From: Candidatus Uhrbacteria bacterium
GTDB taxonomy: Bacteria; Patescibacteriota; Patescibacteriia; JACQRZ01
Assembly (NCBI GenBank): GCA_016206155.1
Contig: JACQSC010000004.1
Span: 75,699 to 139,698, forward strand
Length of the DNA stretch: 64,000 nt
Direction: 5' to 3'
A program made the translations under genes and the position numbers. A model generated the notes under the pieces. That model ran no database searches, was not told the DNA's origin, and saw only the letters and a program-made list of their open reading frames with translations. The stretch's first letter is position 1; each line of letters starts with the position of its first letter. Positions 36,223 to 44,637 of this stretch are shown piece by piece.

Positions 36223-36603
36223 AGAGATAGACCCCATTATCATGGGGCGCATGTCTCTGGAGGGCTTCAGATTTTATCTGAAGCCCTGCATATACAAAAG
36301 TCCTTATTATGGTCGAGATATATCGATCTATTAGTACGGCTCGGCTCAAAATCTTGCGATCCTTACACCTGCCGCCTATCAACCTCGTAATCTCCGAGGA
36401 ATCTTATAACGAAACCTAATCTTGAAGACGGCTTCACGCTTAGATGCTTTCAGCGTTTATCCGTGCCGAACGTAGCTACCCAGCGGTGCTCTTGGTAGAA
36501 CAACTGGTACACTAGAGGTTCGTTCATTGAGGTCCTCTCGTACTATCAATGAGCCTTCTCAAGTTTCAACGCCCACGGTGGATAGGAGACCGAACTGTCT
36601 CAC

Positions 36604-36812
36604 GCATGTTAATCCTTCTGTTTCCAGATGGCATGGACTATATCTTCACCCTTCAAAAAAATTCGAAGGGGCCAACGTGTAGTCTCTACGGACCCCCCGA
36701 TGGATATCGGGGTTGCCTCGGTATTCCCTTTGCCTAATGCTTTAGGGTTCACCGATATAGTTGGTGCTAGAACGATATTACTATCGCCAAACGCCGTATC
36801 GCAGATTGCGAT
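36604..36812 (-). mobile_element. group I intron, ORF-less, at the 23S site equivalent to E. coli 2593 (GAACGUC^GUGAGACAG)
   Basis: Exon sequence resumes exactly across the gap. The intron carries GAGACUACACG and AAGAUAUAGUCC group I core elements. Confidence 0.65.
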
Positions 36813-36873
36813 GACGTTCTGAACCCAGCTCGCGTACCGCTTTAATTGGCGAACAGCCAAACCCTTGGGAGCT

Positions 36874-37620
36874 CATTTCTGTTTTCCCGCATTACTGCGG
36901 ATATCAGACTATACCTTCACCATGGCATACCATGTTACCATGGTTGCTATAGGTGCGAACCGTATGATAAAAATTAATTTTATCGCATGATAATCTCCAA
37001 AAAAACTATCAATTAGTCGTTACGGGAGCTTCATTCTTTGATCATTATCGCATAGTTCCTCCGTCGACTTTTGGATCGAACGTTGAACGACGATAATGTA
37101 TCCGCCAACCGCGCAATATCGTACAGATTTTTTTTAGAACGAATATCTCTCTGCAAAATTGATTGTGCGATCACAATCTGTTTTTTCTTGCAGCGAGAAT
37201 ATGGTGCAATCTGTTGAAGGAACATGATTATTTCTTTTTGATCTCTCGCGACCCATTCATAGGTAGTGCGATTTGATCTGATATAACCAATTCCTGTCAC
37301 TGGAACTAACCACTCAACATCGTGCTTATGATATTGGGTTATCTTTACCGTAATGCGCACTCGAAAACCAAAACGCTTTTCGGCGTGTTTTTCAAGTGTC
37401 GCCATGATGGCACCGTCGCCATCTAAAAAACCTGCGATATATGCTCGGTCGACTTGGGAAAGAAGCTTTCCCACGGTATTAACCTTCATATACTCTCATT
37501 ATACCTGGGACCTGCGAAGTTGCAAGCCACCCGTTATAATGGAACCATCGAAGGCCTTCACCGTTTTGGGCTCGTTTATTACTCCGACGTTTCCGTCGGA
37601 GAGAGAAGGTAAATGGTTTT
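36874..37620 (-). mobile_element. group I intron at about E. coli 2535 region (CCUGGGGGUGGAG^AGCUCCCAAGG) carrying a LAGLIDADG ORF
   Basis: Exon identity is interrupted for about 750 nt, and the interruption contains ORF 37031..37489. Confidence 0.55.
37031..37489 (-). CDS. LAGLIDADG homing endonuclease (intron-encoded)
   Basis: IAGFLDGDGA motif, 152 aa. Confidence 0.85.
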   Translation of the reverse strand: MKVNTVGKLLSQVDRAYIAGFLDGDGAIMATLEKHAEKRFGFRVRITVKITQYHKHDVEWLVPVTGIGYIRSNRTTYEWVARDQKEIIMFLQQIAPYSRCKKKQIVIAQSILQRDIRSKKNLYDIARLADTLSSFNVRSKSRRRNYAIMIKE

Positions 37621-37652
37621 CTCCACCCCCAGGATGCGATGAGCCGACATCG

Positions 37653-40786: not shown

Positions 40787-41518
40787 CACAGTTCATCATG
40801 TTGCCATAATGGCAGACTATACATTCATCTTCCTGTCATCCGTAGGAGACTCTCCATTGTATATCGCCTCGCTCCAAGACCATTCATCTGATAGGCGCGT
40901 GTGATGATTATTTTTAAACCATCGCTCGTTCTGTGTTGCCGCTTCAATACATTGGCACAGATTGATCGCCATGTCTCAAAGTCATGATACTTTGATGAGC
41001 GAAGGGGATACTGTTCGAAGTGTGGAATAATCTTTTCACAAAGATCGTTAATGTTTCGAACTTCATATTTGTATGTTCCGTCGTGGATATTGAATCGGAT
41101 TGTCCCGCATCCAAAGAAGTCTTTGAGGTCATCAAGAACCACTTTACTTCTTTGGTGCTGACTAATCGTGAAGCTTGGACGCGTTTCGACGCCAAGAAGA
41201 AATTTTTTCCGTATCGAAAATGATACGAGAAAACTTCCTTCACCATCAACAAACCCTGAAACATACCATGGATTGAGCTCCATAGATTGACTTATTTACT
41301 TAGGAAGAGTCGGCGTGTTACCTCTGCTCATTGCAGAAGTCTTCTCTTTCGAGGCAGTCGTTACGGGGTCAAGTCCGATTGACATCGGACCGACTTCCCA
41401 CGGTATTATCCATATATTATATCATAGTATGGACTTCACCGTTATGAGCCGATTTACATGTATCGCGTCACCACGATACTCGGGCAAGTTCTCTCCGACC
41501 AAGGAGGAACATGTGTTC
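40787..41518 (-). mobile_element. group I intron at the E. coli 1931-equivalent site (GUCGGGU^AGUUCCGACC) carrying a LAGLIDADG ORF
   Basis: The exon stops after GUCGGGU and resumes at GUUCCGACCUGCACGAAUGG. 235 nt of intron separate the exon end from the ORF ATG. Confidence 0.65.
40825..41283 (-). CDS. LAGLIDADG homing endonuclease, single-motif I-CreI-like
   Basis: YVSGFVDGEGSF motif, 152 aa. Confidence 0.85.
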   Translation of the reverse strand: MELNPWYVSGFVDGEGSFLVSFSIRKKFLLGVETRPSFTISQHQRSKVVLDDLKDFFGCGTIRFNIHDGTYKYEVRNINDLCEKIIPHFEQYPLRSSKYHDFETWRSICANVLKRQHRTSDGLKIIITRAYQMNGLGARRYTMESLLRMTGR

Positions 41519-41539
41519 ACCCGACAAGGAATTTCGCTA

Positions 41540-41797
41540 GCCGCTTCCTTTGTGCGACGAACTCTCTCTTCACCCATTTATACTATCATTATAGCATAAA
41601 TGGGGCACGGCGTAGAGTTTCTGGAGGGTCCGATTGACGTCGGACTTCCCTGCTGATTGCCCAAGGCATTTGGGTTTCCAGCATATAGCCATGTTTTGAC
41701 CATTTCCATATTACTATGGAATGAGGCAGCTTTTTCTATTTACCCATTCACTATAACGGTCCCAGTCCTTCTCGATTCCACCATTGTGAAATCGAGA
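41540..41797 (-). mobile_element. group I intron, ORF-less, at the E. coli 1917-equivalent site (GGUCCUAAGGU^AGCGAAAUUCC)
   Basis: About 255 nt separate perfectly conserved exon flanks; no ORF inside. Confidence 0.6.
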
Positions 41798-44637
41798 ACC
41801 TTAGGACCCTTATAGTTAGGGCCGGCGTTCATCAGCGCTTCAGTTCAAAGCATTCCAGATAAATCCAGTCAACTTCTCCCTTTAACGTTCTGACACTGGC
41901 CAGGCATCAGCCCCTATACATAGCCTTTCGGCTTAGCAGAGACCTATGTTTTTGGTAAACAGTCACTAAATAAACGTTAGCTGCGCCCGGCCTAAAGGCC
42001 GGGGAGGCATATCCCGAAGTTACGCCTAGCTTTTTTGCCGAGTTCCTAAACAAGGGTTCTCCCGTACACCTGAGTATACTCAACCCGTCCACCTGTGTCG
42101 GTTTGCGGTACGAGTGCTCACCAGTTAACTCGTGGGGTGCAGGAACTAATCCAGTATCGTTTGAGCGATATTGTTCTGTGTCCATATTCAAGGCGCGAGG
42201 AGCGACACGATGTAAATGCATCGTTAGCGATCTCGCAACACAGAATATGGCACAGAACAAATCGCCCGAAGGGAGACTAAAAAATGGCCGATTTTTTTGT
42301 TGCTCCTCCTCGAAGTACTACTCAGTACTCCTTTGTCGTCGCGCCTCGAAATCGTCTCATTTTTTAGCCTCTCAAGACAATGCTGGATTAGTTCCTGCAC
42401 CCCTGGGCTTTTCTAGGCTTCTCCGTCTCCCGGCTTGCAGAATATCGCTATTCCGCTCGATCCCATACCTTACGATATGGTCTGCGCGTATAACCAAAAC
42501 ACGCCCGGAACGTGGAAAAGCGTCCCCCATCGAAACTGATGAGCAGTTCAGGAATATTAACCTGATATCCATCGGCTACCCCTCATTAATCAAGGACTCA
42601 CCTTAGGATCGACTAACCCTGGGTCGATTTGCGTTGCCCAGGAATCCTTGGACTTTCGGTGTTGAAGGTTTTCACTTCAATTTTTGCTACTTATGCCAAC
42701 ATTCGCACTTCTGTACGCTCCACCATTTTTCACAAAACAGCTTCATCGCCTACAGAACGTTCCTCTACCGCCCAGGCCTAAAGGCCTGGGCCCATATCTT
42801 CGGTACCACGTTTGAGCCCCGATATATTTTCGGCGCGCGGCAACTGGACCAGTGAGCTATTACGCTTTCTTTAAATGATGGCTGCCTCTAAGCCAACATC
42901 CTGGTTGTATAAGTCGCGACACCACCTTTTACACTTAACGTGGATTTAGGGACCTTAGATGATGATCTGGGCTGTTCCCCTTTAGACGGACGGACCTTAG
43001 CGCCCATCGTCTGACTCCCGCTGTATAGCATTTCCAGTATTCGGAGTTTGGTTGGGGGCGGCAGGATTTCTCCACCCGACCCCATTCAGTGCTCTACCCC
43101 TGGATGCCACAACGAGGCTAGTCCAAAAACTATTTCGAGGAAAACAAGCTATTACCGAGTTCGATTGGAATTTCTCCCCTAACCTCAGCTCATCCCCATG
43201 CGTTGCACGACATGTGGGTTCGGGCCTCCTCCGACCTTTCGGACGGACTCACCCTGGCCAAGGCTAGCTCACCCGGTTTCGTGTCTTGTGCATGCTGCTT
43301 CTTGAGGGTGTAGGGTTCAGGGGTCAGGGTTTAGATTGCGGTGACCGCAACCCTCTACCCTTTACCCTAAACCCTTTACCCTCAAATGCGCCCCATTCAG
43401 ACTCGGTTTCCCTTCGCTTCCTCCGCTTCATGCGGATTAAACTTGCAACATACAGCAAACTCGTTGGCTCATTCTTCAATAGGAACGCCGTCACCCCCGG
43501 ATTACTCCGAAAGCTCCGACTCCTTGTAAGCACACGGTTTCAGATACTATTTCATCGGCCTCCCGGCCTGCTTTTCACCTTTCCCTCACGGTACTTGTTC
43601 ACTATCGGTCGTCAAAAGTGTTTAGCCTTACCAGATAGTCCTGGCGGATTCCCGCTCGCTTTCACGAGGCGCGCGGTACTTGGGAACACATACGACAGAT
43701 TGGAAGATTGTTTTTGCATACGGGGCTTTCACCCTCTTTGGCAGGCCTTCCCAGACCTTTCTCCTAACAATCCGCCGCTCTGCATGGTTGGATCAGCAAC
43801 CACATATATGCGTCCCGCTACCCCAAAAAAACCTATAGCCCGATCGCCTTCCCTCACAACTTGAAATCTTCCTTGCGGAAAAAACCTTATCATGAGTTAG
43901 AGTTTTCTTGGTTTTGGCTCTTCCCTTTTCGCTCGCCACTACTCGGGGAATAAACTCTTGTTCTCTTTTCCTCCGGCTACTGAGATGTTTCACTTCACCG
44001 GGTTGTCCCCCCGACGTACGTCGGGGTACCACGATCTTCCATCGTGGTGGGTTTCCCCATTCGGAAATCCTCGGATCACAGGTTGCTTGCCACCTTCCCG
44101 AGGCTTATCGCAGGCTGCTACGTCCTTCATCGTCTTTTGACGCCAAGGCATCCTCCGTGTGCCCTTAACTATATCTCGACCATAATCAAGACTTTTGCTC
44201 ATATCCGCCGCGCAAATACGGCAGTATGAACGTGTATACGTTTGAACTATGCTCTTTTCGTTTACTTTCTATTCAATTCAATTGTCAATGTGCGCTCTCT
44301 TTTTTAAGGAGAGTGGCGGGGGATTGAGCCTTTCTATCTCCCGTCACCATCCTCAAGCGTCAATTTTTTCTAAAGACAACAAAAAAACCGCCGGTAAGCG
44401 GTCTCATGAGGCGATTAGTCGTCTCGTTCAAGGCCCCTTACGTGTGCTTCTTTTTACTTTGTAGCAATCGAAACATTCGTTTTTAAGAGAAAATCGTTGA
44501 ACGAGACTGATGCGTCTCTCCTTGTTATTAAAACAAGTATTGCCATTATAGATGATAATAAAGGGATGTCAAGCCCCTATTTATAGGAAAAAATTTCCTC
44601 TGCTGTGCATGAAATGGGGATATTTTGGGGAAAAATA

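Follow-up and report, generated by a model that had tools for sequence, protein, structure and literature searches.

Seven probable group I introns, five with LAGLIDADG endonuclease genes, in the 23S rRNA gene of a Candidatus Uhrbacteria bacterium

We analysed a 64,000-nt stretch (the window) of the Candidatus Uhrbacteria contig JACQSC010000004.1, in which a first-pass annotation had described a 23S ribosomal RNA (rRNA) gene of about 7.9 kb at 36312-44170, with exons colinear with the 23S rRNA of Escherichia coli. Both its extent and its colinearity were confirmed. The gene lies on the minus strand, where the Rfam model of bacterial large-subunit (LSU) rRNA (RF02541) matched at 44175..41680 and 36569..36323, and blastn against E. 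coli 23S rRNA (L001:2490-5393, the ruler for exon numbering) followed the exons in order with seven breaks. We conclude that this gene has very probably been colonised by seven mobile group I introns (I1 to I7), five of which carry an open reading frame (ORF) for a LAGLIDADG endonuclease. Splicing in silico leaves a 23S sequence of 3,311 nt, and the introns sum to 4,553 nt, or approximately 58% of the gene. The insertion sites, named after the E. coli position (Ec) that they follow, are L1931, L1951, L2262, L2449, L2500, L2533 and L2593, all within the domain IV-V/peptidyl-transferase region. Collected loci are designated by L and three digits. The features of the gene are as follows.

44175..36312, minus strand: 23S rRNA gene, 7,864 nt with introns (Rfam RF02541 and blastn against E. 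coli 23S rRNA)
44175-41798, minus strand: exon 1, Ec 1-1931
41797-41539, minus strand: intron I1, after U1931, 259 nt, no ORF
41538-41519, minus strand: exon 2, 20 nt, Ec 1932-1951
41518-40787, minus strand: intron I2, after U1951, 732 nt, ORF in the P8 loop
40786-40500, minus strand: exon 3
40499-39543, minus strand: intron I3, after U2262, 957 nt, ORF 3' of P9
39542-39354, minus strand: exon 4
39353-38499, minus strand: intron I4, after U2449, 855 nt, ORF in the P6 loop
38498-38448, minus strand: exon 5, 51 nt, Ec 2450-2500
38447-37653, minus strand: intron I5, after U2500, 795 nt, ORF in the P6 loop
37652-37620, minus strand: exon 6, 33 nt, Ec 2501-2533
37619-36874, minus strand: intron I6, after 2533 in the helix 91 loop, 746 nt, ORF in the P6 loop
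36873-36814, minus strand: exon 7, 60 nt
36813-36605, minus strand: intron I7, after U2593, 209 nt, no ORF
36604-36312, minus strand: exon 8

The junctions were set by alignment of the exons with E. coli 23S rRNA and with the intron-less relative L089. The spliced 3' region of the window was identical to L089 at 876 of 937 positions (93.5%), with zero gaps over all seven junctions, and this gapless alignment fixes all of them. Position 1952 of the window is G in the same alignment, and the relative L087 carries the same GGGTGAGTTCC. The 60-nt exon 7 sits in a 61-nt stretch that is identical among four relatives. The intron-less allele at L2533 (GGGGGTGGAGAAGCTCCC) and the intron-less helix 91 loop (GGAGAAGCUCCC) were likewise found in four relatives (L087 to L090). 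Among the sites proposed in the first-pass annotation, those at about 2263, 2449, about 2500 and 2593 stood. The pair given as 1917 and 1931 was ruled out by the junction reading and the intron-less alleles, which place these introns at 1931 and 1951, and the site given as about 2535 lies after 2533, in the helix 91 loop. The two ORF-less introns, estimated at about 255 and 210 nt, are I1 (259 nt) and I7 (209 nt); the two tiny exons, given as 49 and 32 nt, are in fact 51 and 33 nt long, and the 20-nt exon 2 had been missed. Among the 23S genes in the collected loci that span Ec 1777-2655 (n=23), the window carries the largest insert load, at 4,538 nt versus 2,577 nt for the runner-up.

A conserved group I core in P1-P9 order was found in all seven introns, in each of which the helices P1-P9 could be assigned by complementarity (for P3 and P7, this was the only check). 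The gathering score of the Rfam Intron_gpI model (RF00028) was reached by I1 (54.4 bits), I3 (70.4 bits, at 40514..40272, placing the ribozyme in the 5' end of I3) and I7 (50.9 bits). Sub-threshold partial matches, confined to the P8-P7'-P9 part, were obtained for I4, I5 and I6 (23.3 bits for I4 and 30.6 bits for I6), and no Rfam match was obtained for I2, because the ORF splits the core in each of these four introns. The ORF-less orthologue of I5 in L087 (L087:8929-9202, 274 nt), which is 89-95% identical to I5 at both ends, scored 57.7 bits with the same model. We then aligned the cores of I2, I4, I5 and I6, with the ORF bodies removed, together with I7, two ORF-less introns at L2500 (from L087 and L084) and two introns at L2533 (from L084 and L086). 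This alignment contained 43 invariant columns, core motifs included, with conserved blocks at J3/4-P4 (UAACGGUGAA), P4'-P6 (AAUACCGUGGGAAG), J6/7-P7 (GUANNGACU) and J8/7-P7' (GAAGAUAUAGUC). RNAalifold recovered P2, P4, P5, P6 and P9 from it, with compensatory changes in 21 of 30 pairs. In the family of I6, the L2533 homologues showed covariation in P1, P2, P3 and P6. The claim of seven group I introns is thus upheld by the Rfam scores, the I5 orthologue and the covarying core alignment. The covariance-model check proposed with that claim succeeded for I1, I3 and I7, was partial for I4 to I6 and failed for I2, and the cores of these four were established by alignment and covariation.

The ends of the introns were also defined by pairing with the exons. 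The ends of I2 are canonical, with U at position -1 and a terminal G, and it forms P1 UCGGGU/GCCCGA and P10 GAGUUC/GAACUU. I4 forms P1 GGGAU/GUCCC and P10 AACA/UGUU, and the ends of I7 are canonical. In I5, P1 GCACCU/GGGUGC and P10 CGAU/AUCG together fix the junction.

Two types of core were distinguished, one comprising I1 and I3 and the other I2, I4, I5, I6 and I7. The I1/I3 core is of the 'CUAUAUGCUGGAA / CAAUCAGCAGGGAA' type, with exact 13- and 14-mers common to both introns; CTATATGCTGGAA and CAATCAGCAGGGAA each occur in two copies in the window (I1 and I3) versus 0.03-0.07 expected by chance. When I1 was aligned with I3-type cores by MAFFT, the 5' half was misaligned. In the second set, GAAGATATAGTC or a near variant is present in all five introns, and I4 to I6 carry P7.1/P7.2. 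The core segments that the first-pass annotation had seen in several introns correspond to these two sets. The L1951 intron of L083 (L083:100-628) resembles I2 (40787-41518) in P1 and P2 and has a core of the I1/I3 type. This match in P1/P2 with a difference in the core suggests that the guide and core modules of L1951 introns may have recombined.

Five intact LAGLIDADG ORFs, with Pfam E values from 1e-7 to 2e-47, were identified within the introns, each with a LAGLIDADG domain, conserved acidic residues and one or two motifs. I2 and I6 encode LAGLIDADG_1 proteins (PF00961), and I3, I4 and I5 encode LAGLIDADG_2 proteins (PF03161). All five translations contain the acidic residues of the motif (motifs GFVDGEG, GFLDGDG, and LLGDG with (Y/F)MDDG). 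The homing endonuclease genes (HEGs) are as follows.

40825..41283, minus strand: I2 HEG, 152 aa, single motif GFVDGEG; LAGLIDADG_1 E=1.3e-26; PDB matches: I-OnuI-family domains, 5gkk, 3e54; two archaeal or uncharacterised 170-aa enzymes
39550..40185, minus strand: I3 HEG, 211 aa, LLLGDG and WYMDDG; LAGLIDADG_2 E=2.2e-47; I-SceI E=1e-25
38614..39216, minus strand: I4 HEG, 200 aa from ATG; LAGLIDADG_2 E=2.8e-32; weak I-SceI match E=1e-5
37784..38401, minus strand: I5 HEG, 205 aa; LAGLIDADG_2 E=2.2e-43; I-SceI family E=1e-11 to 1e-12
37031..37489, minus strand: I6 HEG, 152 aa, single motif GFLDGDG; LAGLIDADG_1 E=1.5e-7; I-CreI/I-MsoI E about 1e-13 to 1e-15

The Pfam matches and PDB relatives bear out the earlier statement that five of the introns encode LAGLIDADG endonucleases. 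The comparison with known families that had been proposed along with it identified I-SceI-like enzymes in I3, I4 and I5 and an I-CreI-like enzyme at 2533, not at 2593. The HEGs occupy the P8 loop (I2), the P6 loop (I4, I5 and I6) or the region 3' of P9 (I3), where the stop codon lies 7 nt upstream of the 3' splice site. The frames of I4 to I6 begin within P3-P6, with the stop codon in or beside P6' or P7. In I4 the open frame reaches upstream to a TTG at 39339, through P2-P6, and in I5 the first 70 nt or so of the HEG overlap P3-P6. The I6 HEG has more than 1,300 homologues, and the named ones all belong to bacteria of the candidate phyla radiation (CPR); four further 23S genes from CPR bacteria have homologues of the enzyme in this helix 91 position. 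A homodimeric enzyme would suit this target, because a sequence that encodes a hairpin is partly palindromic.

The distribution of the introns was analysed in relatives, whose contigs were reached via the neighbouring endonuclease Q-family protein. The 23S exons of L087 are 87-92% identical to those of the window, and three of the seven sites are occupied there. At L1931, L087 has an intron of another type, which contains a HEG of 163 aa; at L2262 it has an orthologous intron, the HEG of which is 79% identical to that of I3, with no gaps; and at L2500 it has the I5 intron minus the HEG. No intron was found in L087 at 1951, 2449, 2533 or 2593. L089, which covers Ec 1928 to the 3' end, contains zero insertions and is empty at the six sites from 1951 onwards, and L088 and L090 are empty wherever they overlap. 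The ORF-less L2500 intron of L084 (L084:5508-5846) retains a decayed LAGLIDADG remnant in the P6 loop (...IIGSILGDGYLR...), a snapshot of the decay of an endonuclease gene. Homologues of I6 occupy the same L2533 site in L084, L086, L186 and L162, and the sites of the window are occupied in other CPR loci (L083, L084, L086, L087 and L091-L210). As relatives differ both in the occupied sites and in the presence of ORFs, with gain, decay and loss as expected of homing introns, this patchy occupancy would fit recent homing and loss. In the L2533 intron of a Candidatus Peregrinibacteria locus (L083:1293-1897), P1-P5 are missing and the HEG starts 10 nt past the exon; this copy looks unable to self-splice, or misassembled.

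We next describe the splice junctions, three of which deviate from the canonical U(-1) or from the canonical terminal G, a detail absent from the earlier group I reading. The 5' exon ends with a U in a U.G wobble pair in I1, I2, I3, I4, I5 and I7, but not in I6, and a terminal G is present in I2, I3, I4, I6 and I7, but not in I1 or I5. When the boundaries of I1, I5 or I6 were moved, both canonical features could be obtained only with 2 nt or more inserted in conserved rRNA, and these alternatives were rejected. A pattern census of junctions at 1917, 1923, 2449, 2504 and 2593 was too noisy for use, owing to exon variants and short motifs.

I5 ends with ...AAUGUA, followed by exon CGAUG, so that its last nucleotide is A; its L087 orthologue likewise ends with UGUA. 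A scan of metagenome contigs for L2500 introns with the pattern GATATAGTC-N(15-45)-CGATGTCGGCTC yielded at least 120 loci (L091-L210), and the following counts refer to the matches listed. A terminal A was present in 30 of 120 introns, mostly as ..AUA or ..GUA. Of these terminal-A introns, 25 were whole, and 17 of the 25 exceeded 500 nt, leaving room for an ORF; the sequences of their P9 hairpins varied. Together, the length and the variation in P9 argue that the terminal-A L2500 intron is a maintained form and not a product of decay. In several terminal-A introns, the nearest G is more than 9 nt away from the junction, so that the use of a neighbouring G for splicing is ruled out. No difference between the A-class and G-class was seen in the J6/7-P7 and J8/7 segments, with the 3' strand of P7 being fixed by the scan pattern itself, and an altered guanosine pocket in the terminal-A introns was rejected on the basis of these compared segments.

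At I6, exon GGAGA is followed by intron AAAC...AAAUG and exon AGCUCC, and in P1 (GGAGAA/UUCUCU) the last exon nucleotide, A, pairs with a guide U. The A-U pair at -1 is also present in the L2533 introns of L084, L086 and L186, and the L2533 intron of L162 has C in the exon and G in the guide, a compensatory change. I1 ends with ...GCGGCU, followed by exon AGCG, so that its last nucleotide is U. In L109, its homologue has A as the terminal nucleotide. The short L1931 introns of L186, L159 and L188, which are related to I1, finish with a G that is also the final base of P9, whereas the terminal nucleotide is A, C or U in several further L1931 introns. It is conceivable, although we regard it as rather doubtful, that CPR 23S introns routinely break two near-universal rules, with an L2500 lineage ending in A, some L1931 introns ending in A, U or C, and L2533 introns having a Watson-Crick A or C at -1. 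If the 23S gene is, as presumed, single-copy and essential, such junctions would imply either relaxed splice-site chemistry or dependence on a protein, whether the LAGLIDADG enzyme or a host factor. No description of relaxed or protein-aided splicing at such CPR junctions was found in the searchable literature. According to its title in the reference list of PMC11270868, the study of Raghavan et al. 2007 describes a comparable case in Coxiella, in which 'one element lacks the canonical omegaG'.

Several observations weigh against a gene with seven functional introns. Three junctions depart from the group I rules (terminal A in I5, terminal U in I1, and in I6 an A at -1 paired with U), and P1 of I1 contains a mismatch and is mimicked by an internal hairpin. 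In the group I introns of Patescibacteria tRNA genes, a change of the terminal G to C blocked exon ligation in vitro (PMC13011429); since these tRNA introns require the terminal G, I1 and I5 may need help or splice poorly. For this organism we predict splicing and exon ligation from the sequence, and the source is a metagenome assembly, with no independent assembly of the same arrangement found. Exact-sequence searches gave no match for GyrA or the I5 endonuclease, and for the endonuclease Q-family protein they gave a single contig of 1.7 kb.

The first of these observations also bear on a rival explanation, namely that some of the insertions (chiefly I1, and perhaps I5) have decayed and no longer self-splice, being removed with host factors or LAGLIDADG maturases, or cleaved without ligation to leave a fragmented 23S rRNA. 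The terminal U, the lack of an ORF, the P1 mismatch and the competing internal hairpin of I1 are in its favour, as are the terminal A of I5, given the requirement of related tRNA introns for a terminal G, and the fragmentation of 23S rRNA by RNase III-type intervening sequences in some bacteria (PMC11270868). On the other hand, I1 and I5 otherwise have intact cores, with P10 pointing exactly at the observed junctions. The terminal A is shared by the 30 L2500 introns described above, most of the whole ones being long enough for an ORF and varying in P9. The 20 nt of exon 2 are identical to those of relatives, so that this exon must end up in the rRNA. Furthermore, a break of the rRNA beside helix 69-71 or within the peptidyl-transferase loop would, to our knowledge, be unprecedented. 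We therefore consider decay of these introns unlikely, and the reading of seven spliced introns is retained.

The last observation raises the question of an assembly artefact, in which alleles with fewer introns each were joined into the seven-intron arrangement. Besides the metagenomic origin of the genome and the lack of a second assembly, the contigs L088, L089 and L090 break off within the 23S gene, at sites of introns or close to them. Nevertheless, the exons of 20-60 nt at four junctions are so short that single short reads should link neighbouring introns, and the region lies inside a 288-kb contig with normal flanks and uniform composition. In addition, multi-intron 23S genes of such size are documented in CPR bacteria, complete genomes included. 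An artefact of this type thus appears very improbable.

In addition to the seven introns, the gene contains one further insertion.

42404-42120, minus strand: 285-nt insertion in domain III, absent from L087 (17 nt there)

This insertion is predicted to adopt a very stable Y-shaped fold with a 21-bp perfect closing stem (minimum free energy -137 kcal/mol, z = -11.4), and approximately 89 nt of it match a segment of L014 at 75% identity. Neither Rfam nor Pfam gave a match, and the insertion is not a group I intron. This eighth, non-intron insertion had been missed in the first-pass annotation. RNase III-type intervening sequences of 23S rRNA are excised without ligation and are classically located at helices 25 and 45. 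The stem and the z score fit an RNase III substrate, while the location, at about E. coli 1440-1590, is outside the classical sites. The insertion could represent either an expansion segment or an intervening sequence of the RNase III type. Exon 1 also contains extra sequence relative to E. coli, about 125 nt near Ec 268-290 and about 88 nt near Ec 668 (window 43374-43916 and about 43286-43374); because L087 is colinear there, these look like lineage-specific expansions and not recent insertions.

For the seven introns, the following course of events is proposed. The precursor rRNA would be transcribed with all seven introns, and each ribozyme would excise itself by the two-step, guanosine-initiated transesterification. 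The exons, down to 20 nt, would be ligated into a continuous 23S rRNA. The introns of Coxiella reportedly self-splice in experiments; here, splicing and ligation are predicted on the basis of the group I cores, taken together with the published absence of CPR rRNA insertions from transcripts. The endonucleases would be expected to cleave intron-less alleles, each at its own insertion site, and double-strand-break repair would copy the intron in (homing). Decay of the ORF and loss of the intron would follow.

The sites of these introns are also known from organelles. Organellar LSU rRNA genes contain many LAGLIDADG group I introns, classically at 1931, 1951, 2449, 2500 and 2593. We take L2449 to be the position of the yeast omega intron and the site of I-SceI, L2593 to be the site of I-CreI (in Chlamydomonas) and I-MsoI, and L1923 to be that of I-CeuI. 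The window resembles organelles in the positions 2449 and 2593 and in the families I-SceI (I3, I4 and I5) and I-CreI/I-MsoI (I6). It differs from them in that the closest I-SceI relative is at 2262, the I-CreI-like enzyme is at 2533, the intron at 2593 is ORF-less and no intron is present at 1923. The ORF of the yeast omega intron presumably lies in the P8 loop, versus the P6 loop for I4.

These similarities, and the location of a 5S rRNA gene after the 23S gene, could be taken to indicate chloroplast or mitochondrial DNA, as the sites and the I-SceI-like and I-CreI-like families match those of algal and fungal organelles. However, the flanks consist of bacterial chromosomal genes, including gyrA, polA, valS, murE and the genes for the CCA-adding enzyme and an endonuclease Q-family protein. 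GyrA of the window (817 aa) matches a Candidatus Uhrbacteria protein at NCBI with 100% identity, the next best matches being in Uhrbacteria or Patescibacteria. The endonuclease Q-family protein is also 100% identical to a Candidatus Uhrbacteria entry, both proteins are on the 288-kb contig, and the synteny of 23S, 5S and endonuclease Q was found on other CPR contigs. Judging by the flanking genes and the identity of GyrA, the host is a CPR bacterium and not an organelle; the organellar explanation was rejected on gene content and GyrA identity, and we assign it a negligible probability. We assume that the 23S gene is single-copy, as is usual in CPR bacteria.

The genes next to the 23S gene are as follows.

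36223..36116, minus strand: 5S rRNA gene, Rfam RF00001, 88.8 bits, downstream of the 23S gene
34715-36022: endonuclease Q-family (PHP/MJ0043_C) gene, after the 23S-5S pair
44637-44722: tRNA-Leu gene, upstream of the 23S gene

The order 23S-5S-endonuclease Q is common to several CPR lineages (L061, L086 and L087). Relatives of the endonuclease Q-family protein in a genome-collection scan were at most 54% identical and came from many phyla, so that the taxonomic placement came from the GyrA search instead. No 16S gene was found upstream of the 23S gene within the window, where only the tRNA-Leu gene is present, which suggests a split rRNA operon. A tRNA-Ile gene with the anticodon TAT is located at window 4404-4479; in most bacteria, AUA is read instead by a CAT tRNA that is modified. 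Related Uhrbacteria GyrA proteins (P0141, P0151, P0152, P0154 and P0161) are 1,215-1,356 aa long and contain the intein domain PF14890, with PF14528 also present in P0152. No intein domain was found in the GyrA of the window. On the basis of these domain matches, GyrA inteins are a further mobile element that is polymorphic in the lineage.

Insertions of at least 100 bp are present in 82% of CPR 23S genes (Tsurumaki et al. 2024, PMC11270868). In that survey, a gene has up to 16 insertions and up to 5,750 bp of inserted sequence, with a mean of 1,327 bp (SD 1,112); 45% of the CPR 23S insertions match the group I model, and nearly all of their ORFs are LAGLIDADG_1 or LAGLIDADG_2 (PMC11270868). 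The insertions are removed from CPR rRNA transcripts, according to Brown et al. 2015 as cited there (PMC11270868). The sites that it names are 1917, 1931, 1952, 2593, 2604 and 2657, others being given in figures only (PMC11270868). The introns of the window resemble these insertions in belonging to the same clade, clustering towards the 3' end of the 23S gene, recurring at the same sites, having ORFs of approximately 150-210 aa or none, and being patchily distributed. They differ from the average in amount, with 4,553 nt of introns plus the 285-nt insertion here against the mean of 1,327 bp. Splice-junction nucleotides are not discussed in PMC11270868, while three non-canonical junctions are described here. 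The gene is thus a heavy, high-end case of a CPR feature already documented (PMC11270868); the gene noted in the first-pass annotation is real, but not the first of its kind.

Outside the CPR, HEG-bearing group I introns are found in cyanobacterial and Thermotoga 23S genes at L1917, L1931 and L2593 (Haugen et al. 2007, PMC1995217; Nesbo and Doolittle 2003). These resemble the introns of the window in occurring several per gene and in having ORFs that extend into core helices, and their L2593 intron has P7.1/P7.2 (PMC1995217). Unlike the window, they number at most three per gene, have single-motif HEGs and are absent from 2262, 2449, 2500 and 2533 (PMC1995217). For Coxiella, Table 1 of PMC1995217 gives two introns, at 1917 and 1951, versus seven in the window, where those at 1931 and 1951 are separated by a 20-nt exon.

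As a new kind of gene, the locus adds little, CPR rRNA introns being well documented, and its irregular junctions most deserve further study. It provides a nucleotide-resolved example of the load of homing introns on a presumably single-copy rRNA gene in a reduced genome, where splicing within the peptidyl-transferase region must accurately connect exons as short as 20 and 33 nt. It also provides matched natural pairs, namely an L2500 intron that contains the endonuclease gene in one organism and lacks it in a related one, together with intron-less target alleles for all seven sites and natural non-G 3' ends and a non-U 5' site. With such matched material, the strictness of the group I splice-site rules and a possible role of CPR endonucleases as maturases would become testable.

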